Positions 31,073 to 62,583 of a DNA stretch of 64,000 bases are shown here, one piece after another. The notes under the pieces are model-generated. The model had not been told where the DNA came from. It ran no database searches and worked only from the letters and a program-made list of their open reading frames with translations. This DNA comes from Dehalococcoidia bacterium. Its GTDB lineage: Bacteria > Chloroflexota > Dehalococcoidia > Lucifugimonadales > UBA3495. How positions within the stretch are numbered: position 1 is the first letter of the stretch; the number at the start of each line of letters is the position of its first letter. Location: positions 1,465,046 through 1,529,045 of the forward strand of contig OZ244811.1 in the NCBI GenBank assembly GCA_965220105.1, in the 5' to 3' direction. The position numbers and the translations under genes are program-made.

Positions 31073-31090
31073 AGGAGAACGGCGGTTGAC

Positions 31091-34095: not shown

Positions 34096-34214
34096 GGGCC
34101 TTTTCAAAGTCGGTGTATTGACCAATTCCGCTCGTCCTGAGCCTGTCGAAAGACGATCGCCGATGGTTCGACAAGCTCACCATGAGCGGAGGTTGGGGGA
34201 CTTTGAAAAGGCCC
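34096..34214. mobile_element. Shell-2 MITE-like element carrying the cargo-b doublet
   Basis: Perfect 16-bp TIR GGGCCTTTTCAAAGTC; internal CCGCTCGTCCTGAGCCTGTCGAA...TTCGACAAGCTCACCATGAGCGG. No TSD visible. Confidence 0.82.
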
Positions 34215-34406
34215 ACGCCGGACTTGCTCGGGGTCTGGACGTTTTTGTGCCGATGAACATTGAACCCTCCGAAACGGGTTAAAGGAATGCGCCGTTGATT
34301 CCCGGTGTCGGCAGGGAGGAACAGTTATACTGACACGGCAAATTGCCTTATTGAAGATTAAACCCCGCCCGAGCCTGGCAGGAGAACCTGAAGGAGGAAC
34401 ACGCCA

Positions 34407-35540
34407 ATGCATTGTGGAGTGATGGTCACTGGTTACAACCAAGGTGACTGGGACCGTCTGATGGAGGGAGATTACGACCGCCCGCCGACGGTACCGGACG
34501 CCAGGAATATGGATGACACCCTCTATATGGGGGAACTAGTCGAGCCGCTGGGGTTCGATTCGATCTGGGCAACCGAACACTACGGCTCCGCATACTCGAT
34601 GCAGCCCAACCCATTGCAATACCTGGCATATTGGGCGGGCCGCACCAGCCGGGTCGATGTGGGTACCGCGGTCATCGTCGCGCCGTGGTGGAATCCGGTG
34701 CGGCTGGCTTCCGAGATCTCCATGCTCGACATCCTGCTGAAAGGCCGGCGCCTCCATCTGGGGATCGGCCGCGGAATCGCGCCCCACGAGTATGCTTCGC
34801 TCGGCTATCCGATAGATCAATCGCACAAGTATTTCTACGACGTAATCAACGCCATCAAGGCCGCTGACGGCGCGGAACGCTTCGATTTCCAGGGCGAGGT
34901 CTACGATATCCCTCCGACCAGCATCCGGCCTCAGGCCCGCCATAAGGGTGAACTGACCAAGAACATTAAGGTGGCGTTCACTACCGAGGCGTCAGCAAGA
35001 ATGGCTGCCGAGAACGGTCTTGGGCAGATGTTTGTTGCCGGCGACAATGTCGAGGAGATGACCGATAAGGTGCGAAGGTTCAACCAGATTCGGAGCGAAC
35101 TGGGCCTTCCGCCCGACCAGCCTACCACTTTGTTGTGGATGTATTGCGCCGAGACGGCGGCGGAGGCCGAAGAGGGATGGGACTACTTCCATAACCAACT
35201 CACCGCGGCCCAGCACCACTACTTCGAATGGAACAATCCAGGCTATGAGGGTATACACGGCTACGAGGAATATCTCATACGCCAGAATGCCGACGTCGGT
35301 ACCGCGGATGCCAGTTTCGCCGCCCGGCGTTCAACCCAACCCATCGGTACGCCGGACGAGATCATCGAGAAGATCAGGGCGCTCCAGGAGACCATCAGCC
35401 TGGAAAAGCTGGTGATCCACATGTTCTACGGCGGGATGCCGAGGGATAAAGCCGAAAAAAGCCTCAAACTCTTCGCAGAGAAAGTCCTTCCGGAGGTGCA
35501 GGTCATGCCCACTCCAATCAATCCCAGATCCCTGGGGTGA
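34407..35540 (+). CDS. Luciferase-like (LLM class) flavin-dependent monooxygenase
   Basis: GFDSIWATEHY, GTAVIVAPWWNPVRLASE, LHLGIGRG; GGAGG RBS. Confidence 0.9.
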   Translation: MHCGVMVTGYNQGDWDRLMEGDYDRPPTVPDARNMDDTLYMGELVEPLGFDSIWATEHYGSAYSMQPNPLQYLAYWAGRTSRVDVGTAVIVAPWWNPVRLASEISMLDILLKGRRLHLGIGRGIAPHEYASLGYPIDQSHKYFYDVINAIKAADGAERFDFQGEVYDIPPTSIRPQARHKGELTKNIKVAFTTEASARMAAENGLGQMFVAGDNVEEMTDKVRRFNQIRSELGLPPDQPTTLLWMYCAETAAEAEEGWDYFHNQLTAAQHHYFEWNNPGYEGIHGYEEYLIRQNADVGTADASFAARRSTQPIGTPDEIIEKIRALQETISLEKLVIHMFYGGMPRDKAEKSLKLFAEKVLPEVQVMPTPINPRSLG

Positions 35541-35604
35541 GCCCGCCGGCCGGTCAAAATGCCGTCACACAGATTCCGAACATCACGGGCTTCTATGGGT
35601 CCGC

Positions 35605-36416
35605 CTAACGCCCGGCAGTTTCCCAAGCCACGACACAGGGGCGCAGGGGCTGTACCCCCTCGATTTGCCAGACACCTTCCTCTTCGTGCAACGAGCTCTC
35701 TAACGCCCGCTCCAGCCGGGTCATCGCTTCGGTCCCAAGAGTAACGTAGATTCGACGGGCGATCATGTCGCTCGCTTCCTGGCGGCTGCCGAACCCCCGT
35801 GGCGGCTGTTCGTCCAGCTCGGTCACCTCCGGCCTGATGCCCAACTGCTCCAGAACCGGGAGGAACTCCGGCAGACAGGGGAGCCGGCGGCGTTTTTCGC
35901 CGTGAACTTGCTCCCAAAGACCGGAGATTTGCGACTGCGGCGGAGACTGGAACAGAACGGCCAGGACCAGACGGCGGGCGTGGCCGTCCATCTTTCGGAC
36001 GAATGATCCGATGTCCTCTATGACGTAAACCACGTGGCTGCACAGCACCACGTCGGCGGGTTCAACGGAGACTTCCAGCCAGCCGGCCTCGATCATGGAG
36101 ACGTTTGCGATGTTGTATTCGAGGGCAGTCTCCCGCAGCACGGAGCACATGCTGGGCGACGGCTCCACCGCCGTCACTGTTCGGCAGGTGAGCGCCAGCG
36201 GCAGGGCCAGCCGCCCGCGCCCACGTCCAACAGGGTTTCACCCGGCCTGAGGCGCGCACGGAGTTCTTCGACCAACGGATCTCCCGCCCGGTGCGGGTCG
36301 GCCTTGAACTGCGGCGCGGATTCCGTCCAGTGGTCGGTGGGCCGCACTCCCCGCATCCGGTCCGACTGCTCGTGCTCCACCCGCACCATTTCGCCCCAAG
36401 ATTCGATCGCGTTCAT
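35605..36416 (-). pseudogene. Class I SAM-dependent methyltransferase split by a frameshift
   Basis: TLLDVGAGG in one frame continues as LALPLALTCRTVTAVEPS in another (junction about 36210), then DVVLCSHVVY. Real deletion or assembly error. Confidence 0.8.
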
Positions 36417-36569
36417 TAGACCTTCTCCGATGATGAATATCGGGGCCCGTTGGCCCGCAAGGCTTGGCATCCGCCGGGCACGCACATTCTAACCGCGAAG
36501 GCGGCGGTGCAACAGTCATGCGGGACTGCCGCTATCCGAAGAGTGGGGTAGTTGTAGTATGTTGGGAAT

Positions 36570-37850
36570 GTGGCAGCGATAGCAAAAATTCTGATGGTTT
36601 TACTGGTGGCGCTTGCAGTAGGATGCGACCGCGCGACGCCAACGCAAACAACGACCTTCACGGTTCCGACGCTCCCGGCGCCAGCGCAAACAACGACCCC
36701 TACGGTTCCGACGCCTCCGGCGCCAGCGCAAGCAAAGACCTCTACGATTCCGACGCCACCGTCGCCATCTTCGGAACCGGAGATGGCGACCCTGCGGCTG
36801 GAACCGGTGTTGACTGCCAGGTCGTTCCGGTCACCCACCAACCTGGTTCAGGCTGACAATGGCCAGGTGTGGGTATCCGAGCAGGCCGGACGGGTCTGGG
36901 TATTCGACGGGACGAATCCTGGCCACATCGCCGTCCCGGAGCCCCTGGACATCACCGATCGCGTGAATAGCCGCCGTTCCGAAGAAGGGCTGCTGGGTAT
37001 GGCGTTGGACCCGAAAATCCAACGGCACCTGTACCTTTACTACACCGCGGCCAACCCACGCCGTTCGGTGGTCTCGCGTTTCACCGTTTCGTCTGACCGT
37101 CCCTCCGCCGACCCAGACAGCGAAATGGTGATCCTGGAAGTTGAGCAACCATTCGCCAATCACAACGGCGGCCAGCTCGCTTTCGGGCCGGACGGCTACC
37201 TGTACATCGGCCTGGGCGACGGCGGAGCGGCCGGCGACCCGCTGGGCAACGGTCAGAATACGTCAACACTGCTCGGGGCCATCCTGCGAATCGACGTATC
37301 CCGAACCACATTAGACCATGCGTACACCGTCCCGCCGGACAACCCCTTCTTCGCTGACGGCGGCGGGCGCGGTGAAATTTGGGCCTATGGCCTGCGTAAC
37401 CCGTGGCGGTTCGCCTTTGATCGCGACATCGGTGAGCTATGGGCCGGCGATGTGGGGCAGAACCGTTGGGAGGAAATTGACCTCATCGAGCGGGGCGCCA
37501 ACTACGGATGGAACGTGCTGGAGGGCACCCATTGCTTCCTTGCCAGGGACGGTTGCGAACGTAAAGGAACGGTACCGCCGGTATGGGAATACTCGCTGGA
37601 TGGTGAACCGTGCTCGGTGATCGGTGGCTACGTCTACCGTGGCTCCGCGATCCGGTGGCTGAACGGCGCCTATGTATACGGCGACTTCTGCTCCGGCAAG
37701 GTCTTCGGCCTGCGCTACGTCGACGGCGAGGTGGTGGAACATCAACAACTCCTCGACACTGGCCTGCATATCATGTCTTTCGCCCAGGACAACAACGGAG
37801 AGCTATACCTGCTCTCCCAGGAGTCGGGCATCTATCGCCTCTCCAATTAG
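36570..37850 (+). CDS. PQQ-dependent glucose/sorbosone dehydrogenase (YliI/GSDH-like) lipoprotein
   Basis: EEGLLGMA, NHNGGQLAFGPDGYLYIGLGDGG, GAILRID, WAYGLRNPWR. Confidence 0.9.
   Translation: MAAIAKILMVLLVALAVGCDRATPTQTTTFTVPTLPAPAQTTTPTVPTPPAPAQAKTSTIPTPPSPSSEPEMATLRLEPVLTARSFRSPTNLVQADNGQVWVSEQAGRVWVFDGTNPGHIAVPEPLDITDRVNSRRSEEGLLGMALDPKIQRHLYLYYTAANPRRSVVSRFTVSSDRPSADPDSEMVILEVEQPFANHNGGQLAFGPDGYLYIGLGDGGAAGDPLGNGQNTSTLLGAILRIDVSRTTLDHAYTVPPDNPFFADGGGRGEIWAYGLRNPWRFAFDRDIGELWAGDVGQNRWEEIDLIERGANYGWNVLEGTHCFLARDGCERKGTVPPVWEYSLDGEPCSVIGGYVYRGSAIRWLNGAYVYGDFCSGKVFGLRYVDGEVVEHQQLLDTGLHIMSFAQDNNGELYLLSQESGIYRLSN
36642..36767 (+). repeat. Three in-frame 42-bp repeats encoding a Pro/Thr linker
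   Basis: TQTTTFTVPTLPAP / AQTTTPTVPTPPAP / AQAKTSTIPTPPSP. Confidence 0.85.
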
Positions 37851-37910
37851 CCAGGAGGGTGTCCGGGGACTGGACAAACCTGGCGTGTCGAGGCCTCACG
37901 CCATTTGCTC

Positions 37911-38040
37911 GATTATTTGCAATGACGTTGCGACCCCGTACTTGATGCGGGGGTGGCAATCTCGTTGGCGAAAAAACCCGGCTGCCGATTGGGATTGCCA
38001 CGTCGCTTAGCTCCTCGCAATGACAGTACCTCAAATAACC
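37911..38040. repeat. Cargo-a palindromic doublet, divergent copy
   Basis: ...GGTGGCAATCTC and GGGATTGCCACGTCGCTTAGCTCCTCGCAATGAC arms; outer GATTATTTG / CAAATAACC; lies between convergent genes. Confidence 0.78.
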
Positions 38041-38077
38041 GGCCTCACATTTGACCAGACTGTCCGCAGTTGCGATA

Positions 38078-39031
38078 TCAGAACCAGTTGGCTTTGTCCA
38101 CCACGTTTCGTAGTTCTCTGCCCTCGTTGAAGCGTTTGCAGTTGTCGATGAAGAGCTCGGTACGTCGGTCGTCGAGATAGGGGCCGTTACCCGCCACGTG
38201 GGGCGTGATCAGCACTCCGGGCATACTCCAAAGGGGGTGTCCAGCGGGCAGCGGCTCAATTTGAAATACATCGAGACCGGCGCCGGCAATCTCGCCCGCC
38301 CGCAATGCATCCACCAGATCGTCCAGAATTACCGTGGCTCCCCTCCCGATATTGATGAAATATCCGCTGCTCTTCATGGCGCGGAACTGGGCCCGTCCGA
38401 ACATACCTTGCGTTTCCGGCGTTTCCGGAACGGTCACGATGACAAAGTCGCCCCGCGGCAGGACTTCCAGCAGGTCATCGGGCCGGTGCAGCTCCGAAAC
38501 TCCCGCGGAGGGCGCTGGCAGTCTGGGATCGACCCCAAGCACCGTCATTCCGAACTCCGAGCACAACCGGGCGGTTTCGCCGCCGATGCCCCCGACACCC
38601 ACGATCACCACGGTGGCTTCCGGCAAGTAGATCGTTGGGTACCCCTGCTGCCAGACGCCGGCAACCTGTTGCGGTATGTACACCTGTAACCCCCGGGCGA
38701 AAGCTAACAGCAGGGACATGATGTGGGCGCTGATATGGTCGTTGTAGATCTCTCTGGTGTTGGTAACCACCACGTCGCTCCCAATTAAATCCTGGTGGTA
38801 ATACCCGGCGCGCGGCCCGGCCTGGGGGCAGGCAATCCACTTGAGGTTGCGAGCCCGCTCCAACAGTTCCGGCACAATATCGCCAAAGGCCGCGTCAGCG
38901 TCGCCGATGACCTCCATCGCCTCCCCCACCGTGGGGCAAACGTGAACGTCGATATCCGGTATTTCCTCCCGCAGCCGCTCCGGCCAGTGGCCCTGGTAGT
39001 TGGGTGGGCAGATTACCAGCTTGAATCCCAT
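38078..39031 (-). CDS. D-2-hydroxyacid dehydrogenase (NAD(P)-dependent)
   Basis: VIVGVGGIG, VPETPET, INIGRG, AGLDV, ITPHVAG; AGGAGG RBS before ATG 39031. Confidence 0.9.
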   Translation of the reverse strand: MGFKLVICPPNYQGHWPERLREEIPDIDVHVCPTVGEAMEVIGDADAAFGDIVPELLERARNLKWIACPQAGPRAGYYHQDLIGSDVVVTNTREIYNDHISAHIMSLLLAFARGLQVYIPQQVAGVWQQGYPTIYLPEATVVIVGVGGIGGETARLCSEFGMTVLGVDPRLPAPSAGVSELHRPDDLLEVLPRGDFVIVTVPETPETQGMFGRAQFRAMKSSGYFINIGRGATVILDDLVDALRAGEIAGAGLDVFQIEPLPAGHPLWSMPGVLITPHVAGNGPYLDDRRTELFIDNCKRFNEGRELRNVVDKANWF

Positions 39032-39184
39032 CTCGGCGTTCCTCCTGCTTGATCTCAGTTGCGACATTCTAGGCCGAATTGAAGCGGGCGCAACACTCAG
39101 CGACGCAACCATTACGCCTTATCCGTATTACGTGCGTCATCCGAGTTGTATAATACGACCGAAAATGGCCTGGAGCGGAAGAAT

Positions 39185-40009
39185 ATGGCGAATTTGACCA
39201 ACACGCACCGAATCGGCGCCCTGGTTCCCGCCACCAACCCGGTGGTCGAACCCGACTTCTACCGGGTGACGCCGCCGGAAATCACGGTGCACTTCGAGCG
39301 TATGTGGAACGGCGCCTGGGGAACCCAGCCGGAAATTTCCACCGACACCGGGCACCGTCTCAGCATGACCAGCAACGAAGCCGACGAAGTCGACTGGGCG
39401 CTGTTCGGATTCGACGTCGGCAAGATGAACGACGACGTGGCCCGTGGCGCCAGCGCCCTGTCCAACATCGGTCCCGACGTTCTGGTCTATGCCTGCACTT
39501 CTGGCACGTGGCATAGGGGCTATATGGCCTACGACCAGCGGATGGCGGAAATCATGGAGGCAGCCAGCGGCGTCCAGTCAATAACCGCCGTCGCCTCCTG
39601 CATCGCCGCCATGCGGCACATGGGCAGCCGCCGGTTGAGCATCGCTGGTCCTTACCGCAACTTCCACCTGCGAAACCGCCTGAAGCCGCTGATGGAAGAG
39701 GCCGGCTTCGAGGTGCTGAGCGCCGACGGCGAACCGTGGATGCAGGACTCGATGAACCCCCGCGAAATCGACGCCGAGCCGCCCCAGACCATCATCGACT
39801 TCGTGCCGACGGTGGTCCAGGAAGAGTCCGATACCATCTTCCTGCCCGGCACGGCCTGGCGGGCGCTTGACGCAGCTGAAGCACTGGAGCAGAAGCTGGG
39901 CAAGACCGTCATCACAGTCAACCAGGCCACCATCTGGATGGCCCTCCGGCGGCTGGGGTGGTCGAAGCCGATAGACGGCTACGGCAGCCTGCTGCGAAGC
40001 CTGGAGTAG
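39185..40009 (+). CDS. Maleate isomerase / arylmalonate decarboxylase (Asp/Glu racemase superfamily) homologue with one catalytic Cys
   Basis: IGALVPATNPVVEPDF, VYACTSG, SIAGPY, IFLPGTAW, GKTVITVNQATIW. Confidence 0.85.
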   Translation: MANLTNTHRIGALVPATNPVVEPDFYRVTPPEITVHFERMWNGAWGTQPEISTDTGHRLSMTSNEADEVDWALFGFDVGKMNDDVARGASALSNIGPDVLVYACTSGTWHRGYMAYDQRMAEIMEAASGVQSITAVASCIAAMRHMGSRRLSIAGPYRNFHLRNRLKPLMEEAGFEVLSADGEPWMQDSMNPREIDAEPPQTIIDFVPTVVQEESDTIFLPGTAWRALDAAEALEQKLGKTVITVNQATIWMALRRLGWSKPIDGYGSLLRSLE

Positions 40010-40120
40010 CCGGCGAACGGACTTATCGGCAAGGGGGACCGGCCCCGGGAGTGTGGGTCGGATCCACGCAACTGTCAGGGTCGCCGAATTTATTTCTCCG
40101 CGCCTGAATGGCGGTGTCTT

Positions 40121-40258
40121 CAGAAGTGGCGTGATGGCGGGACGTGGGGACGAGTTGAGGCGGATTTGCGTGCCCCGGCACGAGAAGCGGCGAGGCTGGA
40201 AGCCACACCCGGCTCGGCCATCATCGGCAGCCAGTCGGTGAAAACCACGGATAAAGGA
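40121..40258 (+). pseudogene. Short remnant of an IS5-family transposase
   Basis: Manual translation QKWRDGGTWGRVEADLRAPAREAARLEATPGSAIIGSQSVKTTDKG aligns to WRRDGTW...[17 protein letters not shown] of the IS5 at 16.3 kb. Confidence 0.75.
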
Positions 40259-41766: not shown

Positions 41767-41918
41767 CTTTAATCTGTCATTGCGAGGAGCACCCGCTCAT
41801 CCCGAGCTCGCCGAGGGACGTGGCAATCTCGATGAGGTTGCCACGTCGGCGAACCGCCGTTGCTACGACGACGAGATTGCCGCGCTACGCTCGCAATGAC
41901 AAAGTGGGGACGCATGAG
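41767..41918. mobile_element. Shell-1 composite element, reverse orientation, one end truncated
   Basis: Near reverse complement of 23561-23728 and 49311-49479; ends AAAGTGGGGACGCATGAG; left TIR mostly missing and no TSD. Confidence 0.85.
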
Positions 41919-42313
41919 GAATGCCCTGGCCCATATTGGGTGGCCGGAGATGAAGTGAGTGTGCCGGCTGAGGACCTCCGGTCGCCTGGCCGCCAGGGTT
42001 CGCGTCTCACGTCAAGCACGGCGTGATGGCAGCCCGCGACGGCGGCGGAAACCTCAAAGCCCGAGTAGGAGACCGAATCTCCGTGGGTGTAAGCCGCGCG
42101 AGAATGGGATTTCCAGACTGGGGTTTAACCGTGCCTTCCCGGAGGCTTCGTTGCGATTTGGTTCTGCGGCCAATCGTACGACGTCGCGTTGCCATTGCCG
42201 AAGACGTGGGCCAGTCGGACGGCGACGGGGGGACGCGGTGCACCCGGAGCGTCCCCCTGCGGGATCGTCATGTCTTTGCCCCGGAGGGGATATTGGCAAG
42301 TCGGTTGGGGCGA

Positions 42314-46461: not shown

Positions 46462-46478
46462 CGGTGTGTACTCGTTCA

Positions 46479-46620
46479 CAGGGCCTTGCGACTATCCCCC
46501 TAATGTCATTGCGAGGAGCGAAGCGACGTGGCAATCTCGCTCATCCTGAGCCTGTCGAAGGACGCCAACGAGATTGCCACGCTGCGCTCGCAATGACATT
46601 GCCGATAACTGAAAGACCCT
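46479..46620. mobile_element. Shell-2 MITE-like element carrying the cargo-a doublet
   Basis: Ends CAGGGCCTTGCGACTAT / ATAACTGAAAGACCCT; perfect 9-bp flanking repeat ACTCGTTCA (46470-46478 / 46621-46629); core AATGTCATTGCGAG...CTCGCAATGACATT. Confidence 0.85.
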
Positions 46621-46645
46621 ACTCGTTCAGCATATCTGAGACGCA

Positions 46646-46766
46646 CTAGTAGACCAACCGCTTTGAAATGATGGGAATCCGTCTTCACGCCTTGCTTTAG
46701 ACCGACTTCGCTGGAGAACCAGGACGAAGCCAGCAACTCATCATTTCAAAGATTTCGGACCACTAG
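46646..46766. mobile_element. IS630-type mini-element (non-autonomous, about 120 bp)
   Basis: 27-bp TIR (21/27, inner 13 bp CTTTGAAATGATG perfect), bounded by CTAG at 46646 and 46763; abuts the full IS630. Confidence 0.7.
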
Positions 46767-47998
46767 TACCCAGTCACATTTGTATTGATGGGTATAAGGA
46801 CTTGAGCTTGATGCGGGCGTCCTCGGTTGTGAAGCGCCAGTCCGCTCGAAACCCCTGCCGATTCCGCTGGTTTTCCCATGCCCCGGTTTCCTGCTCCAGG
46901 ATTCCCCGGCTGGGGATACGGCGGTCCAGGCACTGCCCTGCCAGCACCCCCAGTTCTATCTCCGCCATATTCAGCCAACTGCCGTGCTTCGGCGTGTAGT
47001 GAATCTCCAGCCGCTCCGCGATGCGCCGGGCCTCTGCCGGCTCGAAGGCCTCGTACAAAGATGCCAGATGATGGGTGTTCAAGTTGTCCATCACCAGCAC
47101 TATCCGCTCCCTATCGGGATAGTCCTCGTCCACCAGCTTCCGCACCACCTCCGCCCAGTCAACCCTGGTGCGCCGGTCCGTCACCTCCACCCGCCGCCAT
47201 CCCTCCAAGGGCGCGAACAGCATGAACAGGTTGCTCACCCCGTTGCGCTGGTATTCATAATCGTAGGCCATGACTGAACCAGGCCGCGGCGGACGGGATT
47301 GCCGAGTCTCCCCCACCAGTTGCTTGCTGGTCTCGTCCAGGCACACCAGAACTTCCTTGTCTTCATAGCTGCGGTGATAGACCTCCAGCACGTCTTCCAT
47401 GGCGCATACAAACTCGGCGCTGCCCTGGGGAGGCAGACACCAGCACTCTTTCAGCCAGGGCTTCAGTTGGTTTTTTTCAAGGTCCGGCGCACCGTCTCGT
47501 CGCTGATGCTCTCCACTATCTCTCCTTCCACCAGTCCGTCGGCCAGCAGTTGCAACGTCCAACTGACTCGTCCCTCCGGCGGCGGCGAGCAGGCCAGGGC
47601 AATCAGGTGGGCCTCACCCTGACCATCCAACTTCTTCCGGCGCCGGTTCAGTTGCTCTTTGCGACCCAGGGCGGCCGCCACTCCCTCCTCCACACAGCGG
47701 CGGCGTACCCGTTCCACCGTGGCGGTGCCCACCTTCAGGGACCGGGCTATCTCCTGGTCCATCATTGGCCCCTCGGCCTGATTCTCATCGCTCAGCAGCA
47801 GGATGCGGGCGTGAGTCTGCTTATAGGCTGCCGCCCGTCCCTTGGAAACCAACGCCTTCAGTTCCTCCTGTTCTTCTACCGTCAGTTCTACCCGATACTT
47901 CTTCACCATCACGTCCCTCACCACTTCCCCATTTGTTCCTGTATCTACTTGACCTTCACATCCTACCATCCATCAATTCATTGGTGGTAGGCCACTAG
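46763..47998 (-). mobile_element. IS630-family insertion sequence
   Basis: CTAG at both ends; 29-bp imperfect TIR (20/29); two overlapping transposase ORFs. Confidence 0.9.
46774..47909 (-). CDS. IS630 transposase, two ORFs joined by a probable programmed -1 frameshift
   Basis: HTH ORF ends RRTLKKTN; DDE ORF has CLDETSKQ, VMDNLNTH, HYTPKHGSWLNMAEIE. Slippery A-AAA-AAC on the minus strand at 47470-47476. Confidence 0.88.
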
Positions 47999-49083: not shown

Positions 49084-49310
49084 GACGGCAAGCGTCTCCT
49101 GCCGCAGCAGAAGATCTGCGCTCCGGACGCGATAACCCCCTGAGTGCTGTCAGTCCTGTTGGTACAGGCGGAGGCGAGCGTTGCATTGCGCCGGGCCGTA
49201 GAACCGGTGCCGGTCCTGGTACGGACCGGGCAGTCGCGGGCGAGGTCAATCGGATCGCCAACCGGGTTACGGACGGACGTTCGGCGCCGCGCGTCAGTAC
49301 AGAACCGGTG

Positions 49311-49479
49311 CTCATGCGTACCCACTTTGTCATTGCGAGCGTAGCGTGGCAATCTCGTCGTCGTAGCAACGGCGGTGCGCCGACGTGCGTTCAACCTCAT
49401 CGAGATTGCCACGTCCCTCGGCGAGCTCGGGATGAGCGGGCGCTCCTCGCAATGACGGATTAAAGTGGGTAAGCGTGAG
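49311..49479. mobile_element. Shell-1 composite MITE-like element
   Basis: TIR CTCATGCGTACCCACTTT / AAAGTGGGTAAGCGTGAG; flanks AGAACCGGTG and GGAACCGGTG (9/10); lies between convergent permease genes. Confidence 0.9.
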
Positions 49480-49601
49480 GGAACCGGTGGCGTTGTCCTA
49501 TGCGACAGAAATCACCTGTTGCACTTCAGATGTGAATCCATCGACTGGATTGCGGCCTGCGCCGGGCTGGCGGAGGCGGGGCCGGGAGGGGACTGGGGTG
49601 G

Positions 49602-54970: not shown

Positions 54971-55552
54971 AGATGGACGGACTCCTTGGCCTGGAGAGGT
55001 AAAATGGCATTCAGCGCGGGATTCTAAAGTGCGGCAATTGCCGGCCCGCCGCTGTGAAAACGTCGGTGCGCCATTCGAGCGCGCCACCATTGTAACAGCC
55101 CTGCCCGGCCCGCATATCGACCTGGTCGGGCACAGCGGGCTAATTCTGGCAGTACCGGTCACCACCCCGCCATCCACGCCGCGGGCCACCTCGAGAACCA
55201 CATTCGCCAACTATCTCAAGTCCCCGTTGGAGAGTCCGCCAGAACTCAAAACGTGGGTTTCTGGTACTGACTACGTGGGGGCCAAAGCAGACCTTATTGA
55301 GAATTTTGGCTGGGAGATGGCGCTGCCCAACGCATGAACTCCCGTATTTACGGCAGAAGACAAATGGTGCGGCGTCCCCTGCCCTCAAAGTCACGCATTA
55401 GTTTGTCGCGGTCTCCGATGGCGCAGTCAGGATCATGGGCAACGAAGAGAGTGTGCGCTGCCCGAGGATTCTGGCCAAGGCCCCCCAGGACTCAACGCCA
55501 TGAAGGATTAATTGAAAATTCTGCACGCCATCCACGGCTAAGCTGCTTCACC

Positions 55553-55725
55553 GAGATTGCCACGTCGCTACGCTCCTCGCAATGACAGACGGGGCGCACG
55601 ACTTGATATGTCATTGCGAGCGTAGCGTGGCAATCTCGCTCATCCTGAGCCTGTCGAAGGACGCCAACGCAGCAATCTTGGCTACGGGAACGAGGTCTCC
55701 ACGTCGCTCCGTTCCTCGCGATGAC
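55553..55725. repeat. Cluster of three cargo-a arms with an embedded cargo-b half
   Basis: GAGATTGCCACGTCGCTACGCTCCTCGCAATGAC; TGTCATTGCGAGCGTAGCGTGGCAATCTC followed by GCTCATCCTGAGCCTGTCGAAGGA; GAGGTCTCCACGTCGCTCCGTTCCTCGCGATGAC. Confidence 0.85.
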
Positions 55726-55817
55726 TTGAGCAGAAGAACCGAAAGGACCCAAGCACTGTTCCGCGAAGGGCGAGTTCATAGTGGCAGACGGATCCGATGT
55801 CGTCCGTGCCTGGCGGT

Positions 55818-57161
55818 TCAGCCTCTGCCCACCGCCGCCTGACCCAGCACACTCATCAACTGCCCCACATCGTCCAGACGCTCCAGGTTCTCCAGCATCC
55901 CCAGCACGCGCTCGGTGTCAGCTTCGGAAAGGGCGCGACGGAAGCAGTCGCGTATCTTTTCCAGGCGCTGATCCCGGGACATGGGATTGGCCACCGATCC
56001 GCTGAAGGCGGCGCATTCGGCGCTGACCGTAGTCCCGTCTTTGAGCAAAGCGGTGGCGAGCGTGGCGCCCGATGCGGGGCCTTCCGGTTCCACCCGGATG
56101 CGACCCAGCATTTCCTCCATGTCCGGAGAGAAGCGGCGGGCGTCGGTGAAGGTGTCGATACCCACCTGCCCGTCCAGCAGGGCGGCGGCGGCGCAGTATT
56201 CCACGCTGAACTTGCCGTCCAGGCCGCTGCGGGGCGCCGGCCCCGAATGGCCCCGTCCCCGGCGGTGAAGGGTCACCTGCTCGATGTCGTCGGGGTCAAG
56301 GCCGTTCTGCTCGCGTAGGTTTAGCGCCGCCTCGATGGCGTTCTGCATATAGACCTGGGCGGGGAACCGTTTGATGTCAAAACCCGGGTCGAGCAGCCGC
56401 CACGACGCCCCCAGGCCTCCGGTGGCCGTGTCCCAATTGAACTCGCCCCCGAACAGGGCCGCTGCAAAACCCACGGGCGATTCCAACGCCTCTTCGCTGG
56501 CGGTGTAGCCCATGCCGGCCAGGATGGCCGCCTCGGCGCCCATGCGGGCGGCGTTGCCCGGGTGGGTGGACTTGACCATGGTGCCCGTGTTGGCGGTGAG
56601 GCCGCCGGTGCGAGAGGCGGCAATGCCCAGGGCCATCAGGGTTTGCCCGGCGTCCTGGCCCAGGGTCTTGGCTGCTGCTGCCGCGCCCCCCAGGGGACCC
56701 ACCAGGCCCGGCGGATGATAGGCGGGAGCGGTGGCCGGCGCTGAAGCGGCCCGCAACCGCCCCTGGATTTCCCAGCCCAACACGTAGGCGGTGATGACTC
56801 GCTCACCTGAAGCGTGGTGGTGTTCCGCCAGCGCCAGGGCCGCCGGCAGACAGGATGAGGTGCCGTGGGTGGGCGGAAACCCCTGGATCTCGTAGTCCAG
56901 GCAGTGGCCGAAGACCCCGTTTGCGAAGGCGGCGGCCGGCGGGTTGGTCTGGTAGCCCCAACCTACCACCGAGGCCTGGGACGAGCCGCCGGCGTCCCGC
57001 ACGTAGCGGCCGATGATGTCGGCGAGTTCCTGGACCGAACCAGCGACCATGTTGGCCACCCCGTCCAGGATGGCGATTTTGGCCGCTTCCACCACCGGAG
57101 GCGGCAGGTTTTCAAAGTCGGTGTCGGCAATAAACTGGGCCAGGGTTCGGGTTGTGCTCAT
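55818..57161 (-). CDS. MmgE/PrpD family protein
   Basis: AILDGVANMVAGS, AAFANGVFGHCLDYE, KSTHPG and DGKFSVEY patterns. Confidence 0.88.
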   Translation of the reverse strand: MSTTRTLAQFIADTDFENLPPPVVEAAKIAILDGVANMVAGSVQELADIIGRYVRDAGGSSQASVVGWGYQTNPPAAAFANGVFGHCLDYEIQGFPPTHGTSSCLPAALALAEHHHASGERVITAYVLGWEIQGRLRAASAPATAPAYHPPGLVGPLGGAAAAAKTLGQDAGQTLMALGIAASRTGGLTANTGTMVKSTHPGNAARMGAEAAILAGMGYTASEEALESPVGFAAALFGGEFNWDTATGGLGASWRLLDPGFDIKRFPAQVYMQNAIEAALNLREQNGLDPDDIEQVTLHRRGRGHSGPAPRSGLDGKFSVEYCAAAALLDGQVGIDTFTDARRFSPDMEEMLGRIRVEPEGPASGATLATALLKDGTTVSAECAAFSGSVANPMSRDQRLEKIRDCFRRALSEADTERVLGMLENLERLDDVGQLMSVLGQAAVGRG

Positions 57162-57248
57162 GGATTACCTACCTCGCAGGTCGCCGGGATAACGTCAGGA
57201 TAGGTTATCACCCAGGGCATAGTGAAGCCACAGCAGCCCGCTGCGCCG

Positions 57249-57372
57249 CAGGACGATTGCAAAGTCCCTGGACACCCGCTCATGGTGAGCTTGTCGAACC
57301 ATCGGCGACCATCCTTCGACAGGCTCAGGACGAGCGGGTAGAGTCAACCCCGGTAACTTCGCAATCGTCCTG
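57249..57372. mobile_element. Shell-2-related MITE-like element carrying the cargo-b doublet
   Basis: 17-bp TIR CAGGACGATTGCAAAGT (16/17; 13/17 to the shell-2 end); 62-bp core differs from the reverse complement of the 34128-34189 core at about 3 positions. TSD not convincing. Confidence 0.8.
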
Positions 57373-57447
57373 GAGCGCCAGACGGAGGTTGCTCCAATAC
57401 ATGGGATGCGGGCTATAATGCCCCAAAACCAGTTTGGGGGTGTCCCT

Positions 57448-57858
57448 ATGGCTAAAATCAAACACATTGCCATCACCTGCGAGGACCCGGATGCGATGGC
57501 AAAGTTCTATAAGGAAGGCTTCGACCTCGTCGAGGTCGCGCGTAACGCCCGACAGATCCAACTCTCCGACGGCGACATCAACCTGACCATCCTCAAGTGG
57601 AAGACCGACGAGGACGCCGACGTCGGCCCCGATGGCGAGAACTACAGCGGTATCCACCACATCGGATTCCAGGTAGACAGCCTGGAGGATGCGGGAGCCA
57701 GGCTCCGGGAGATTCACGGAAAGGAAATTGTCCGACGTGAAGTAGCAGGGGACGGCGAACCCCGCCTGCCTCGCGCCGAGGAGAAGTGGTCTGGTCCCAA
57801 CGGGCAGGTCCTGGATATATCGGAGCCGGGATGGCTCCACAAATTGCCCATGGATTAG
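57448..57858 (+). CDS. VOC (glyoxalase/bleomycin resistance) family protein
   Basis: IKHIAI...AKFYKEGF...GIHHIGFQVDSLE...GPNGQVLDI. Confidence 0.85.
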   Translation: MAKIKHIAITCEDPDAMAKFYKEGFDLVEVARNARQIQLSDGDINLTILKWKTDEDADVGPDGENYSGIHHIGFQVDSLEDAGARLREIHGKEIVRREVAGDGEPRLPRAEEKWSGPNGQVLDISEPGWLHKLPMD

Positions 57859-57884
57859 CAAACTATCTGGGGGAGGGGAATGTT

Positions 57885-58331
57885 ATGGAAGCAACTTGCG
57901 TTACCCACATCGGAATCTGCGTAAGAGACATGGACCGGTCATTGGCTTTCTATCGGGACATACTGGGAATGACGGTGCTGGGCGACCGGATGACCGACCC
58001 GACCGAAGGGGGCCGACTGCACAACTATCGACGCCAGCGCCAGGCCCGCCGCTGGGTCAGCCTTGCCTACGGAGCTGGGGCCACACCTACGCTAACCCTC
58101 ACCAGCCATCCCGGCGATGAGCCCGATGGGGAACCAATCAAGCTGGACATGGTCGGCATCAGCCATATCTCCTTCGGAGTCGCCGACGTGAAGACGCTAA
58201 CCGAGGAACTGCTCAGCAAGGGCGTCGAACTGGCTGGCCCCATCGAGTCCTTTACTGGCCCCAATGGAGACATCCGCAGTATCTACGTCCACGACCCCGA
58301 CGGGATCCTGGTCCAGTTCAATACTCCGTAG
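57885..58331 (+). CDS. VOC family protein
   Basis: THIGICVRDMDRSLAFYRDILG...SHISFGV...YVHDPDGILVQF. Confidence 0.88.
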   Translation: MEATCVTHIGICVRDMDRSLAFYRDILGMTVLGDRMTDPTEGGRLHNYRRQRQARRWVSLAYGAGATPTLTLTSHPGDEPDGEPIKLDMVGISHISFGVADVKTLTEELLSKGVELAGPIESFTGPNGDIRSIYVHDPDGILVQFNTP

Positions 58332-58520
58332 AGAGAAATGCAAAACCACCCCACTGGTTCTTTGGCTTGGTTCATGGACCTAGCAGGAATCGTTGTTTCC
58401 ATACCGATGTAGAGAACGAACGTAAGCCGGACCGGTATTGAGCGCTAGCTTTTGCCACCCAACCATTTTGTTCCTCTTAGTCCGGCAAACTACTCGATTT
58501 CCTTTGAGAGGGCAACGGGC

Positions 58521-59048
58521 ATGAAAACGCAGACGGCGGTATTCCAAGACCCCATAGACAAGTTCGAACTTCTTATGGAGCGACTTCGGAAGTGCGGCCC
58601 CATAAGAATGGAAACCAGACGGGAACATAACTCCCTGCGGCAAGAAATCAAGCAGCGAGTCAGTTCCGAAAAGGGAATATACGTCTTTTATGAGGACGAA
58701 GTACCCCTGTACGTGGGAAGAACAGACCAGATGGCTGATAGGTTGCTTAACCACGGAAGGAAACCAAGTGCGGATGTGCCATCCTCCGCTACTTTTGCGC
58801 TGATACTTGCCAAGTATGAATTCAAGAAAATGTACTCGGTGCAACATAGCCTGTTTGGCAAGGAATTAGCCAGGGAGCTGAATGGCCATCACAGCATGAA
58901 GATGGAACTCTGGAAGGAAGCCGTAGAACGAGTGAGGCGGATGTCAACTCGGGTCGTCGAGGTCGAGCATCCCCACGAACAGGCTGTCTTCGAGGTCTAC
59001 GTCCATGAGAAGATGGAGACGCCGTTCAACAGTTTTGTGAACCACTAA
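58521..59048 (+). CDS. Stand-alone GIY-YIG nuclease domain protein
   Basis: KGIYVFYEDEVPLYVGRTDQMADRLLNH (GIY-x-YVG-R-H) and a late FE; DNA visibly more AT-rich than neighbours. Confidence 0.8.
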   Translation: MKTQTAVFQDPIDKFELLMERLRKCGPIRMETRREHNSLRQEIKQRVSSEKGIYVFYEDEVPLYVGRTDQMADRLLNHGRKPSADVPSSATFALILAKYEFKKMYSVQHSLFGKELARELNGHHSMKMELWKEAVERVRRMSTRVVEVEHPHEQAVFEVYVHEKMETPFNSFVNH

Positions 59049-59396
59049 GCATAGGAAGGACTCGACGCTGAGTCAGGTATTCTGGGCCATTTGCCCCTTT
59101 TTGCACTTATCTGACCGCAGTAGCCGATACGTCTTCCTGCGCCATTCATCGATATCCTTACCCAGGATAAAGCCCGTGGACAAATAGCGCAGACACCATG
59201 CCAGAGCAATGCGCCACAGGCTGGATTGCACACGACAATCATCATTGCCACGCTTTCACCACCAAAACGGCGTTGCAGCCGCGCTCAGTGCTTCCATCTC
59301 CGGCGTGTATAGGCGCGCCGGGCCGCCTAAGGCTGGTCGGCAAAGCGAAACGCCCGGGAAAAGTTTCCCGGGCGCGTGAAATGCCAGCCGGTTCCC

Positions 59397-60767
59397 CTAA
59401 ACCCGTATCACCCCCACCACATCCCCGTTCGCTTCCTCGATGGCAATCTCAGTGCCGAAGGGGCGGGAAACGTCCTGCAGCCACTGCAGGGTTTGGCGGG
59501 CGATGGGTTCTTCCGCCAGCACGGGGCGGCCTCGCTGGGGAATGGGACGGCCAAAGCCCATGTCGATGGGGTACAGGATAACCTCTCTCAGGTCGCCGCC
59601 GGCGTAGTTGCATACCGCCACCACGCTCTGCCAGAACACCGGGTCGGCGGCAAAGGCGCGGGTGCCGCCGCCGGAGCGGGTGTCCAGATAATCGCCGGGG
59701 GTGCTGTTGAAGTCCAGCCCGAAACGGCGGTAGGCCTCGTGGGGTAGCCACAGGACGCTTTCATTCTGGAAGATGAAGTTGCCCAGGCTGTAGAAAATGG
59801 GCCGATTCTTGTAAATCTCGATGCCCCGCAGGAAATGGGGGCCGTGACCTACGAAGGCGGCGCAGCCCTGGTCGATGGTCCAGCGGGCAAAGTCCACCAG
59901 GAAGTGGGGCGGCGACTGGCGGGAATGGCCGTGGAAGTCGCCCTCGGACCCGCTCTCGTGGCAGTGGACCCCATAGACCTGCCAGTCGGACTGCGTCTGC
60001 GCGCCCCGGATCCAGTTGCCGATGCCCAGCCGGTCATCCTCGTTCAGAGCGGTGCGGACGGCGAACTGTTCGTCCAAGATGAACTTGTGGTCCAGGAAAT
60101 CTATTTCGGAGCCGTGGTCCGTCGCATCATCGTCGCCCCGGAAGCCGAAGTGGCGATAGAAGGCGTGCTCCTCCTCGTACCCCAGCTCCAGGTTGGCCCG
60201 TTGCAGCGCGTCGAACACGTCCTGCTGCACGTGGTGGGTGATGTCGTGGCGCAGGGCGTTGACCCCCGGGCGACCGGCGAAATCGGGGCGGCCGGCGCCG
60301 GCCCGGGACTGCTCGCTGAAGGTGCTGGTGGCGCCCATCACTGCCACCCGGCCCCGGGCCGAGTCGACGTAAGTGGGAGAACGGGCCTCGTCCAGGTTGC
60401 GGCCGCCGCCGGCGTAAGCCAGGTCGATCTCCCGGCAGTGCTCCAGGGTAGTCAGGAAACCGCCCTCGGAAAAGTCGAAGGAGTGGTTGTTGGCGGCGGT
60501 CACGGCGTCGATGCCCATCCACTTCAGCTCATCCAGGTTGCGGGGGTCGGACCGGGTATAAGTGGCGCTGCTCCACTGCCAACTGCTCTCGTAGTCGTGG
60601 AACAACATCTCCAGGTTGACCAGGGACACGTCAGCTCCCCGAAGAACGTCCACCAGCTTGAGGAAACGGGGCTCCTGGAAGGCCTTCATCCGGCGGGTAA
60701 TCATGGCGTCGCCGCCTACGGCGATGGAAATATCGCGGCGCTCGGCGTCGTAAATCGTTGTGGTCAT
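59397..60767 (-). CDS. CapA-family metallophosphoesterase
   Basis: GDAMI, NLE, ANNHSFDF, GHGPHF and YSLGNF motifs. Confidence 0.88.
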   Translation of the reverse strand: MTTTIYDAERRDISIAVGGDAMITRRMKAFQEPRFLKLVDVLRGADVSLVNLEMLFHDYESSWQWSSATYTRSDPRNLDELKWMGIDAVTAANNHSFDFSEGGFLTTLEHCREIDLAYAGGGRNLDEARSPTYVDSARGRVAVMGATSTFSEQSRAGAGRPDFAGRPGVNALRHDITHHVQQDVFDALQRANLELGYEEEHAFYRHFGFRGDDDATDHGSEIDFLDHKFILDEQFAVRTALNEDDRLGIGNWIRGAQTQSDWQVYGVHCHESGSEGDFHGHSRQSPPHFLVDFARWTIDQGCAAFVGHGPHFLRGIEIYKNRPIFYSLGNFIFQNESVLWLPHEAYRRFGLDFNSTPGDYLDTRSGGGTRAFAADPVFWQSVVAVCNYAGGDLREVILYPIDMGFGRPIPQRGRPVLAEEPIARQTLQWLQDVSRPFGTEIAIEEANGDVVGVIRV

Positions 60768-61092
60768 GTCGCCTCCCTGTGGCATTGGGACAAGGGTGGG
60801 TCAAGTGCGGCCATTTTAGCAAATATGCAGTGGTGGATGATTGGCAGCCCGTGACCCGGGCAGAGCAGCCGCGTCTTATCCGAGGAGGACTTTGAGGCGA
60901 TGCCGTTCGGTTCTGGAGGATAATCCGCCACCTCGGATTCGCACCTGCTACCTCCCCCAGAAGTTTTCCTCTTTCCGGCCCCGGCGAGGTATATGACTGC
61001 TGGGTATATAAAAGGACCTGTTATCTTTTCTCGTTGCGTGATGAACACAGTGTTAGAATTACAGCCTATCCGGTTTTCAGAGGTTTGGCAGC

Positions 61093-61695
61093 ATGCATCC
61101 CAGCAAGTTCGGGGACACTTACGAGATGGCGAAGTTGTGCATGTTGGGCTGGCTCGCCCCCGATGAAGAATGGCTTATCCATCCCATGTACTTCCCCGCA
61201 AAAAGCGAAGCTCCAGATGAAACCTTCCCATGTTGGTACGCCGACTTTCTAGGGGTTCGCCTCGTGCGTGGGAACATTAAGCAGAGGCCGAAGCTCGTGG
61301 ATGCGGTTGCCGCAAACCCAGGTCGTCTCTTCCTCGACCCGGACACCGGCTTGCGACTGAACAAAGCGAAGCTGCGACAGTTCGTGAACGTCGAAGAGTT
61401 CATTGCAATTGCCCATTCCCCTGCCCGTGAACGAAAGCTCGTGCTGGTTTATGATCAAAGCATCAACTTTAACCACGGGGAGGCAGGAACTCCCAGACAG
61501 CAGGTTAGGAGGAAATTGTGCCGCGTGCATGATGCTAACGTCCACGCTGTTGCTTACGTTTCCCATATTGCTTTCATCTGGGCTTCCACAGAACCCGAAA
61601 TTGTGAGTGCCGCCACTCGACGGTTCTTGTTGGGGTCTCGTCTCCCGCTCTGGCGTCTCGTCGATGACGGGTGCGCCCATATACCACAGGCGTGA
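61093..61695 (+). CDS. Hypothetical protein (N-terminal FGDxY..K, central FLDPDTG, VYDQS motifs)
   Basis: 200-aa ORF with natural composition in a more AT-rich patch; no confident family. Confidence 0.65.
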   Translation: MHPSKFGDTYEMAKLCMLGWLAPDEEWLIHPMYFPAKSEAPDETFPCWYADFLGVRLVRGNIKQRPKLVDAVAANPGRLFLDPDTGLRLNKAKLRQFVNVEEFIAIAHSPARERKLVLVYDQSINFNHGEAGTPRQQVRRKLCRVHDANVHAVAYVSHIAFIWASTEPEIVSAATRRFLLGSRLPLWRLVDDGCAHIPQA

Positions 61696-61787
61696 GCAGT
61701 TAGGTGTCGAGTACCCATCCTCTTGCCACCAAATCATCCCCCCGAACCGAACTACACCTTTGAGGCCGTGTACATTCCACCATCCTC

Positions 61788-61896
61788 GGCCGATGCTACA
61801 ATAGTCCTCAAAGACCGACCCTGGTGAACAATCGAATTCCGGGCCGTCACTACCGCTCGGCGGTTACCGGGTGTTGGACCTGGCCGGAGCCATGGG
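61788..61896 (+). repeat. Duplicated promoter plus first codons of the CoA-transferase gene
   Basis: 109-110 bp direct repeat of 62621-62730 (roughly 88% identical); the ATG is lost (AAAGACC vs AAATGACC). Confidence 0.92.
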
Positions 61897-61942
61897 GCTT
61901 ACTATAGGGTGATCGGCAGTTACAGCACCGAGGGCAAAAATC

Positions 61943-62302
61943 ATGACGACCAAGATGGACTATCAAGCAGGCAGCAGAAGCATGATGACGCAGAGCCGCA
62001 TTGAGTTGGCCCAGGGCGATCTGCAACAGGCATCTGAGAAAGGTTGGGGCGCTGCCGCCCAGATGATGAAGGCGGTGGCCAATACGCGCGGCTGGGAACA
62101 TGGCCGACACCGGCACCTCCACCAGATCGCCAGTCGCCTCCGGGCTGAGAGGGGCGACCGAGACATTTACCGCCTGTTCGACACCGCGGGCGCCCTGCAC
62201 GAGAACTTCTACGAAAACCAGATGGCGGCTCAGGACATCTACGAGGCGCTGGACGACGTGGAACGCCTGCTGGACAAACTGGAAGCGATACTGTCGGGAT
62301 AA
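61943..62302 (+). CDS. PaREP1 family (HEPN-like) protein
   Basis: GDLQQASEKGWGAAAQMMKA...RGWEH...ALHENFYE pattern. Confidence 0.8.
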   Translation: MTTKMDYQAGSRSMMTQSRIELAQGDLQQASEKGWGAAAQMMKAVANTRGWEHGRHRHLHQIASRLRAERGDRDIYRLFDTAGALHENFYENQMAAQDIYEALDDVERLLDKLEAILSG

Positions 62303-62347
62303 TGGACCAGACACATGGCTATCTGTCAAGCAGATGTAACCTCTCAC

Positions 62348-62442
62348 CAGGGCCTTTTCAAAGTAATTGACCCCATCAAACTCCGCTCATGGTTGGACAC
62401 TCTCACCATCAGCGGACGTCCAGCGACCTTGAAAAGGCCCTG
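62348..62442. mobile_element. Shell-2 MITE-like element inserted into the left end of a shell-1 element
   Basis: TIR CAGGGCCTTTTCAAAGT / ACCTTGAAAAGGCCCTG (16/17); perfect 9-bp TSD ACCTCTCAC (62339-62347 / 62443-62451); decayed cargo-b core. Confidence 0.9.
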
Positions 62443-62446
62443 ACCT

Positions 62447-62583
62447 CTCACGCGTACCCAGTTTGTCATCGCGAGGAACGAAGCGACGTGGGGATCTCCG
62501 TGAGCGAGCGATAACGTCACCGACAACGAGATTGCCGCGCTTCGCTCGCAATGACGGTTTGATGCAAAGTGGTTACGCGTGAG
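62447..62583. mobile_element. Shell-1 composite element (original left end at 62343)
   Basis: CTCACGCGTACCCAGTT...AAAGTGGTTACGCGTGAG; reconstructed flanks GATGTAACCT (62333-62342) and GGTGGAACCT (62584-62593), 8/10. Confidence 0.85.

Follow-up and report, generated by a model that had tools for sequence, protein, structure and literature searches.

Insertion sequences (ISs) of the ISAs1 family duplicate 8–10 bp of their target site. [quoted passage not shown] REPINs and BIMEs are abundant, extragenic inverted doublets of a short repeat that form a long hairpin and are tied to a single-copy RAYT gene. The repeats called NTS or SRM, present in hundreds of copies, flank on both sides the gene of SsnA, a single-domain GIY-YIG protein of ~100 aa. 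The published activity of the Ssn nucleases is cleavage of single-stranded (ss) DNA, not transposition, and their 2025 description left open by what route the recognition repeats come to number in the hundreds (Chenal et al., 2025, PMC11893778). In the neisserial mosaics dRS3-RS-dRS3, short inverted repeats bracket unrelated spacers, and recombination has been proposed to reshuffle the mosaics (Bentley et al., 2007, PMC1797815). Here we analysed a 64-kb stretch (the window) of the single-contig genome (4.37 Mb, 62% GC) of a Dehalococcoidia bacterium, in which an original prediction, made from the letters alone, had described palindromic elements built from outer ends (shells 1 and 2) and hairpin interiors (cargo a and cargo b). 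Positions are those of the window unless marked genome or C1, and no strand is assigned to the features.

The shell-2 elements are like the ISAs1 MITEs in all the respects listed above, but their interior is not a deleted IS: it is a conserved foreign hairpin core that evolves more slowly than the ends, and for one family, S2b, no partner IS was found. With the NTS/SRM-SsnA system the genome shares a ~100-aa single-domain GIY-YIG gene flanked on both sides by a repeat whose copies run into the hundreds, the frame GTCATT...AATC(Y)NG of that repeat and, for paralogues in the genus, canonical SRMs in an inverted, IS-like layout. Unlike those repeats, the cargo-a arm is off-pattern, forms a weak hairpin when alone, occurs in obligate short-plus-long doublets, lies mostly inside DDE-type MITE shells and is plentiful in genomes that have no such gene. 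As in the neisserial mosaics, conserved inverted repeats bracket many unrelated spacer families and an IS110-type element targets the repeat, but the usual form here is a single doublet within transposon ends, dispersed over the chromosome, with arrays only near the nuclease gene. The difference from REPINs and BIMEs is that there is no Y1/RAYT gene, that the linked gene encodes a GIY-YIG nuclease and that the target duplications are of DDE type. ISAs1 MITEs, Ssn/SRM repeats and NIME-type mosaics are already known separately. What, as far as full-text searches showed, appears not to be described is the presence of Ssn-type arms as cores of several unrelated MITE families, the obligate short-plus-long doublet design, the abundance of arms without a cognate gene, and the link of the cargo-b word to another GIY-YIG clade.

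Taken as a whole, the explanation that we regard as likely is that the shell-2 elements are non-autonomous, gene-less MITEs of three ISAs1-family ISs, that their shells are moved by ISAs1 transposases around Ssn-type hairpin interiors, and that recombination is anchored at the arms. Put simply, jumping-gene ends appear to spread nuclease-linked repeats round the chromosome, and recombination at those repeats appears to reshuffle the interiors.

Three families of shell-2 ends and the ISAs1 partners of two of them

All four shell-2 elements were confirmed, at 34094–34216, 46479–46620, 57249–57372 and 62348–62442; the first had been placed at 34096–34214, with its start 2 nt late and its end 2 nt early, and its right end is GGCCCAC, not GGCCCTG. 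They had been assigned to one second shell on account of their related TIRs. The likeness of the ends stood, while the single shell did not, as a genome-wide end-pair search splits the four into three families, each with its own copies. S2a (ends CAGGGCCTTTTCAAAG) comprises the 34094 and 62348 copies plus one more copy; S2c (ends CAGGACGATTGCAAAGT) includes the 57249 copy and has five 124-bp copies at 91–98% identity; and S2b (ends CAGGGYCTTTCGATTRTC) includes the 46479 copy and has ~45 paired copies of 123–156 bp. The 46479 ends do belong with the shell-2 kind, the element being a clear S2b member that is 95% identical over 125 nt to another S2b copy. Between the S2b consensus and the S2a IS end, 15 of 18 bases agree, the first 11 included (~6e-7 by binomial arithmetic), the S2c and S2a ends match at 13 of 18, and all S2 ends share CAGG.

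The original prediction had proposed a search for DDE transposases bounded by shell-2 ends, and ISAs1 elements of this kind were found. Full-length copies with S2a-type ends (CAGGGCCTTTCCAAAG) lie at genome 1844530–1845635 (1106 bp) and 932836–934072 (1237 bp), and the S2a MITE ends match those of these two 1106–1237-bp elements at 15–16 of 16 positions. Three more with S2c ends (CAGGACGATTGCAAAGT) lie at genome 3205604–3206858, 3792148–3793402 and 3864709–3865936 (1228–1255 bp); the S2c MITE is identical to them at its left end (17/17) and has one mismatch at its right end. The open reading frames (ORFs) of the partner ISs score 99.1 and 92 bits on the NF033564 ISAs1 model (cut-off 70) and also match PF13808 DDE_Tnp_1_assoc. 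IS and MITE have only ~18 terminal nt in common. Beyond these there is no alignment and the interior of the MITE is a cargo hairpin, not derived from the IS through internal deletion.

Exact flank repeats of at least 7 nt were found at 23 of 42 S2b copies (7–12 nt, mostly 9–10), at 17 of 43 shell-1 copies (mode 10) and at all three S2c IS copies, and at none of the mismatched-flank controls (0/213 for shell 1, 0/204 for S2b). The shell-bounded units therefore transposed as units. Within the window, both of the perfect 9-bp target-site duplications that had been predicted are present: ACTCGTTCA at 46470–46478 and 46621–46629, on either side of the 46479 copy, and ACCTCTCAC at 62339–62347 and 62443–62451, around the 62348 copy. 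These, and the S2b duplications at large, agree with the 8–10 bp expected of ISAs1. The right copy of ACCTCTCAC overlaps CTCAC, the first 5 nt of the terminal repeat of a shell-1 MITE with a cargo-a doublet (62447–62586), so the 62348 copy landed on a pre-existing shell-1 element. The 34094 and 57249 copies have no clean flank repeat. The 46479 insertion was also seen in three other public samples, and no empty site for it was seen in the public short-read contigs, which break at repeats. Flanks are 74–78% identical to those of genus relatives, and orthologous empty sites are not reconstructable from such DNA.

Folded as single strands, all four elements are much more stable than shuffled sequence (z −6.1 to −7.1). 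The 123-bp S2a MITE at 34094–34216 (ISAs1-type ends CAGGGCCTTTTCAAAG / CTTTGAAAAGGCCCAC) folds at −34.6 kcal/mol (z −7.1) and has a 92%-identical copy at genome 3646166; it contains a complete cargo-b hairpin at 34126–34189, made of CCGCTCGTCCTGAGCCTGTCGAA, a loop and TTCGACAAGCTCACCATGAGCGG. The interior of the 124-bp S2c MITE (57249–57372, ends CAGGACGATTGCAAAGT) is likewise a cargo-b hairpin, a 65-nt doublet at 57275–57339 (−17.9 kcal/mol, z −4.3). Three copies had been said to carry the cargo-b doublet; it is full in these two, and in the 95-bp S2a MITE (62348–62442) only the outer stem is left (CCGCTCATGG...CCATCAGCGG), so that the inner part of the hairpin has been deleted. The 142-bp S2b MITE at 46479–46620, whose ends CAGGGCCTTGCGACTATC / GATAACTGAAAGACCCT are degenerate forms of the family consensus, has a folding energy of −36.6 kcal/mol (z −6.1) and the composition foreseen for it, a cargo-a doublet with a cargo-b half as spacer (spacer cluster cl1). 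In this doublet (46504–46598; −32.2 kcal/mol, z −6.1) the 34-nt long arm TGTCATTGCGAGGAGCGAAGCGACGTGGCAATCTC is followed by the 31-nt spacer GCTCATCCTGAGCCTGTCGAAGGACGCCAAC and an inverted 28-nt short arm.

Given this agreement between the S2b end and the S2a IS end (15/18, with all of the first 11), cross-mobilisation of S2b by an S2a-type transposase is plausible. Long-range end pairs were considered as autonomous S2b or shell-1 partners and rejected, as they proved to be MITEs split by IS701 or IS110 elements, or two elements around a gene. One such S2b MITE, at C1:1653564–1655167, is split in its spacer by an IS701-family element (453-aa transposase, NF049999 324 bits). At C1:3205604–3206992, a full-length S2c IS stands head to tail with an S2c MITE; the 9-bp TGATTGCCT lies between them and again on their outer sides, a sign that one target was used in tandem. 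Two of the S2c IS copies contain a 15-bp tandem duplication (MDALY twice) and the third is without it.

Cargo-a doublets and the linked GIY-YIG gene

Cargo a is an inverted pair of arms, one of 28 nt and one of 34 or 55 nt, around a spacer. The genome contains 593 arm heads (GTCATTGCGAG, at most 1 mismatch), 350 full arms and 113 cargo-b halves; the reversed arm pattern has no match in 61 genomes, against the 350 matches of the true pattern in this genome. We found 189 doublets and parsed 180, to which the counts below refer. Nearly all of them pair a 28-nt arm with a 34/35-nt or a 55-nt arm, with a handful of exceptions. The 55-nt arm, found in 26 doublets genome-wide, is a long arm whose loop holds a cargo-b half in a 21-nt variant form. 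This variant (5 transitions in 28 nt) is present, as had been noted, in the long arms of three shell-1 copies: 23561–23731 (169-bp class, spacer cl0), 41769–41921 (degenerate left end) and 49310–49482 (169-bp class, flank repeat GAACCGGTG). It is a fixed trait of one amplified shell-1 subfamily, not the result of three events. A further shell-1 MITE, at 30927–31075 (148-bp class, spacer cl0), has a 34-nt long arm and a 10–11-nt flank repeat (A)GGAGAACGGC.

At least one side of 142 of the 180 doublets (~79%) carries the end of a shell, be it shell 1, S2b or a third cargo-a shell, S3; the other 38 doublets are unshelled, and the genome also contains 117 solo arms. The ends of the three shells are unrelated: CTCAYGCGTACCCAC for shell 1 (flank-repeat mode 10 nt), CAGGGYCTTTCGATT for S2b (mostly 9–10 nt) and GGAGACCTTTG for S3. 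The S3 shell (GGAGACCTTTG...CAAAGGTCTCC) has ~16 copies, for example at C1:170108, 1460401 and 2663759, each of them inserted into a loop of the palindromes CCCCTCTCCC-N4-GGGAGAGGGG, a further repeat family that is abundant in its own right.

Between the invariant arms the spacers fall into 30 clusters, some of which cross the boundaries between shells. Spacer cl0 occurs in 60 shell-1, two S2b and one S3 doublet, in four with mixed shells and in three unshelled ones. Spacer cl1, the cargo-b half seen in the 46479 copy, occurs in four shell-1 and 16 S2b doublets, in none of S3, in three of mixed shells and in five without a shell. Other clusters keep to one setting: cl3 to S2b (19 copies, plus one unshelled), cl5 to S3 (15, plus one unshelled) and cl10 to unshelled doublets (10), with no copies of these three elsewhere. 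The S2b junctions are constant (CCCCTAAT at the long arm, CGGCAAT at the short arm) around the unrelated spacers cl0, cl1, cl3 and cl21, and one S2b subfamily, with spacer cl6, has a different shell-arm junction. Three of the 28 cl1 spacers are inverted relative to the arms, and in eight elements the two ends come from different shells, the pair being shell 1 and S2b in five. The arms themselves carry identical inner and outer segments of 10–11 nt.

The modular, combinatorial organisation that had been predicted is thus borne out, with at least four unrelated spacers behind the same S2b junctions and with cl0 and cl1 shared across shells. The exchange of modules between shells is supported for cargo a by cl0 and cl1 in both shell 1 and S2b and by the eight two-shell elements; for cargo b, in S2a and S2c, the sharing looks like descent. 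As to the comparison of shell and cargo trees, suggested as a check, shell labels are not clustered on the cl1 cargo tree (11 changes, 11.4 when shuffled), but that tree is an unresolved star of near-identical sequences and speaks neither for nor against exchange. In the shell-1/S2b chimeras at C1:3130558 and C1:4294194, an 8–9-nt flank repeat is displaced 6–7 nt beyond the S2b end, as if these elements had been mobilised from a cryptic end.

A gene linked to the cargo was to be sought among HUH/RAYT and GIY-YIG genes, and only the second kind was found. There is no PF01797 (Y1/HUH RAYT) match in the genome, although positive controls worked. The sole small GIY-YIG gene, at C1:899722–900018, encodes 99 aa (PF01541, E 2.9e-11); the nearest solved structure is UPF0213 BH0048 (E 5e-5), and no NCBIfam model matches the protein. 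Upstream of the gene lie tandems of truncated arms and one full long arm; downstream there is a complete short-spacer-long doublet with further arms. Its four closest homologues, in other species (68–75% identity), share this layout: GTCATTGCGAG occurs there in 10–19 exact copies, distributed over both flanks of the gene within 1.5 kb. A second lineage, 45–50% identical and present in many genus members, was flanked at nine of nine loci examined by one inverted pair of CGTCATTCCGGCGAAAGCCGGAATCCAG. This sequence fits the SRM pattern as published, and what sets it apart from the Neisseria NTS is mainly a set of compensatory changes in the stem.

The arm of cargo a shares its frame, TGTCATT...AATCTCG, with the CGTCATTCCGGCGAAAGCCGGAATCCAG-type repeats and NTS (GTCATT...AATC(Y)NG). 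As a member of the published SRM pattern it was rejected, as it does not match, and strict pattern matches are not enriched in the genome (46, against 26–42 in simulations). The analysis accordingly calls it a divergent Ssn-type repeat by virtue of gene linkage and homology, not by motif definition, and the putative link of the 99-aa gene to Ssn nucleases is indirect, through the 45–50% identical paralogues with their canonical SRMs. A canonical SRM folds at −9 kcal/mol (z −4.7), and for cargo a a strong fold is found in the doublet only.

Genomes of the genus contain between 0 and 767 arms, and none has a match to the reversed-pattern control. In each of the five genomes that have the lineage-1 gene the arms number 54 or more, but twelve others have more than 100 arms and no lineage-1 gene. 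ISAs1 elements reach 36 or more copies per genome in the genus, and nine of the ten doublets with the gene-proximal spacer cl10 lie within 8 kb of the GIY-YIG gene. Together these observations point to the shells, not to the nuclease cassette, as the chief means of dispersal. Arms are conserved across species and spacers are not.

Tandem arrays of truncated arm heads with a 25-bp period (TTGTCATTGCGAG + 12 nt) were seen at C1:706150–706464 and, beside the GIY-YIG gene, in this genome (G000, 899400–900200) and in another (G032, L018:1150–1420); one array has 17 units. A 1260-bp IS110-family element has two copies outside the window (C1:383044–384303 and C1:3712973–3714247), both at the same position of the cargo-a long arm (CTCCTCGCA^ATGAC), so that the element targets this repeat site-specifically, much as an IS110-like recombinase targets dRS3 in Neisseria.

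Cargo b in the genus and beyond

In this genome the 62–65-nt cargo-b hairpin is confined to S2a and S2c shells, and inside-out cargo-b doublets occur in a fifth shell with ends TTAGAAACTATCTCAAAAC. The doublet at 57275–57339 is 97–98% identical to many copies in two other species of the genus. In most of the 14 species sampled, the cargo-b hairpin lies between CAGG...CAAAGT-type ends, which are recognisable in at least nine; the middle positions of these ends vary, the subterminal parts have diverged yet can be aligned, and one species has the exact end of the S2a IS of this genome. We read the cargo-b MITEs as one old, genus-wide superfamily whose ends appear to track different ISAs1 transposases. 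Because the hairpin is the conserved core of these MITEs, the 34094, 57249 and 62348 copies probably share cargo b mainly by descent, with gene conversion of the core possibly helping.

One 25-mer of the cargo-b half, GCTCATCCTGAGCCTGTCGAAGGAC, is the same to the letter in Dehalococcoidia, Novosphingobium, Allosphingosinicella, Devosia, Luteimonas, Lysobacter and Myxococcales (loci L083–L196). It adjoins small UPF0213-like GIY-YIG genes (MGF[HY]VY[IL]L.C.DGSYYTGHTD...) in 5 of 114 loci (L103, L129, L142, L146 and L162), in four of which it stands 3–57 nt upstream of the ATG on the same strand. A gene of this cargo-b-linked kind is absent from the present genome. The cargo-b word and the UPF0213-like genes may constitute a second candidate nuclease-motif pair, spanning several phyla. 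In sphingomonads GCTCATCCTGAGCCTGTCGAAGGAC forms a hairpin doublet of its own, with a loop of ~35 nt.

Proposed mechanism and competing explanations

In the mechanism that we propose, a DDE transposase acting in trans would recognise the ~17-nt CAGG... ends and move the whole 95–142-bp unit. Only the shell ends are IS-derived, the interiors being two kinds of hairpin module. Cargo b would be an ancestral, slowly evolving core whose ends diversified along with the cognate ISAs1 elements. The cargo-a doublet would be a gene-less form of the GIY-YIG nuclease cassette that came to lie within the ends of at least three MITE families with no relation to one another (shell 1, S2b and S3), and the shells, rather than the nuclease gene, would have spread it over the chromosome. 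The ~600 near-identical arms could then provide portable homology at which gene conversion or crossover sets in: through exchange in the inner arm segments a spacer would be swapped or flipped, and crossover between differently shelled elements would produce chimeras. The same logic has been put forward for the dRS3-RS-dRS3 mosaics of Neisseria. The first doublet may have acquired its shell ends through inside-out use of two flanking IS copies, or through fold-back copying across the palindrome.

Several observations weigh against this account. No autonomous partner for S2b, shell 1 or S3 was found in this genome or among 30 ISAs1 loci from relatives, which have neither S2b nor shell-1 ends. 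Most ISAs1 copies in the genome are frameshifted, so present-day transposase activity is unproven. The S2a and S2c cargo-b cores are 97% identical while their subterminal parts barely align, for which descent alone is insufficient without strong constraint or gene conversion. Recombination is deduced from its products alone. The cargo tree is a star without resolution, and the chimeras at genome 4294171 and 4299137, 5 kb apart, which we considered as reciprocal products of one inversion, do not match in their flanks. Both cargo-a arms fail the published degenerate SRM pattern, and single arms fold no better than shuffled sequence (−3.5 and −3.6 kcal/mol, z +0.4 and +0.6).

A more elaborate version, a two-tier partnership, we offer tentatively and hold to be possible rather than probable. 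Here the MITE shells would spread the nuclease arms, nicking of arms exposed as single strands would drive spacer replacement and chimerism, and the cargo-b word would be the recognition site of the second, UPF0213-like GIY-YIG clade. If true, this would explain the identical 25-mers in Chloroflexota, Proteobacteria and Myxococcota.

The original prediction had gone further and implied mobility or recombination at two or three levels. In a rival reading that makes two or three levels of mobility real, the hairpin modules themselves are mobile: a GIY-YIG (Ssn-like) nuclease or another enzyme copies cargo-a doublets and cargo-b halves, also into MITE loops, and the shells are passive. The arm-gene-arm layout does resemble an IS, there are 117 solo arms and 38 unshelled doublets, the tandems of truncated arms beside the gene hint at several rounds of cutting and copying, the places taken by cargo-b-like words are exactly loops, of two kinds (doublet spacer and long-arm loop), and the exact cargo-b 25-mer is spread across phyla. 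Nevertheless we consider it unlikely, since independent movement of the cargo was not seen: the unshelled doublets with spacer cl10 stay near the gene (9/10 within ~8 kb), 79% of doublets have shell ends, and unshelled units showed neither flank duplication nor a fixed target. Both the 21-nt insert of the arm and the cl1 spacer seem to go back to one event each, after which the shell was amplified; arms exceed 100 in twelve genomes that are without a lineage-1 gene; and the activity published for Ssn is ssDNA cleavage, not transposition (PMC11893778). Three levels of mobility are not supported; DDE transposition of the shells together with recombination at the arms fits this evidence.

It is also rather improbable that there was no exchange at all, each combination of shell and cargo having arisen separately and then been amplified, once a hairpin already present in the chromosome had gained IS ends on its flanks, be it through inside-out transposition from two flanking IS copies or through fold-back copying of one end across the palindrome. 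Arms and doublets do pre-exist outside shells, the major combinations are multi-copy subfamilies (19 copies of cl3 in S2b, 15 of cl5 in S3, 60 of cl0 in shell 1), and the distinct shell-arm junction of the cl6 subfamily of S2b fits a separate birth. Independent captures would not, however, reproduce identical S2b junctions around four unrelated spacers; two-shell elements and inverted spacers require recombination; and the cl1 cargoes from different shells, which hardly differ in sequence, lie mixed together on the tree. Ordinary divergence of all shells and cargoes from a single ancestral MITE, without capture or exchange, would accord with the CAGG common to all S2 ends and with the homologous subterminal regions and graded end variants of the cargo-b MITEs of the genus, but it is highly improbable, being already contradicted for cargo a by the unrelated ends of shell 1, S2b and S3 that hold the same arms and partly the same spacers.

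Under the preferred explanation, ISAs1-moved shells with recombination at the arms, the genus offers a concrete route by which such repeats could spread, riding in the MITE shells of at least three unrelated transposon families, and the arms would act as dispersed homology that reshuffles the elements. For annotation, the ~600 arms and ~110 cargo-b halves produce spurious small ORFs in these Dehalococcoidia genomes.

Other pieces of the same modules are scattered in the window. In a composite fragment at 17170–17300, a cargo-b doublet of the inside-out kind is combined with a single short cargo-a arm and a shell-1 end that is degenerate, and an unshelled cluster of cargo-a arms at 55540–55730 has a cargo-b half between two arms. 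An Rfam scan of the window gave no match. Just downstream of the 46479 MITE, the start of an IS lies at 46745–47200, with five further genome copies that are 99–100% identical, and a 120–150-bp stretch at 46644–46794 is 92–100% identical in four other species of the genus.

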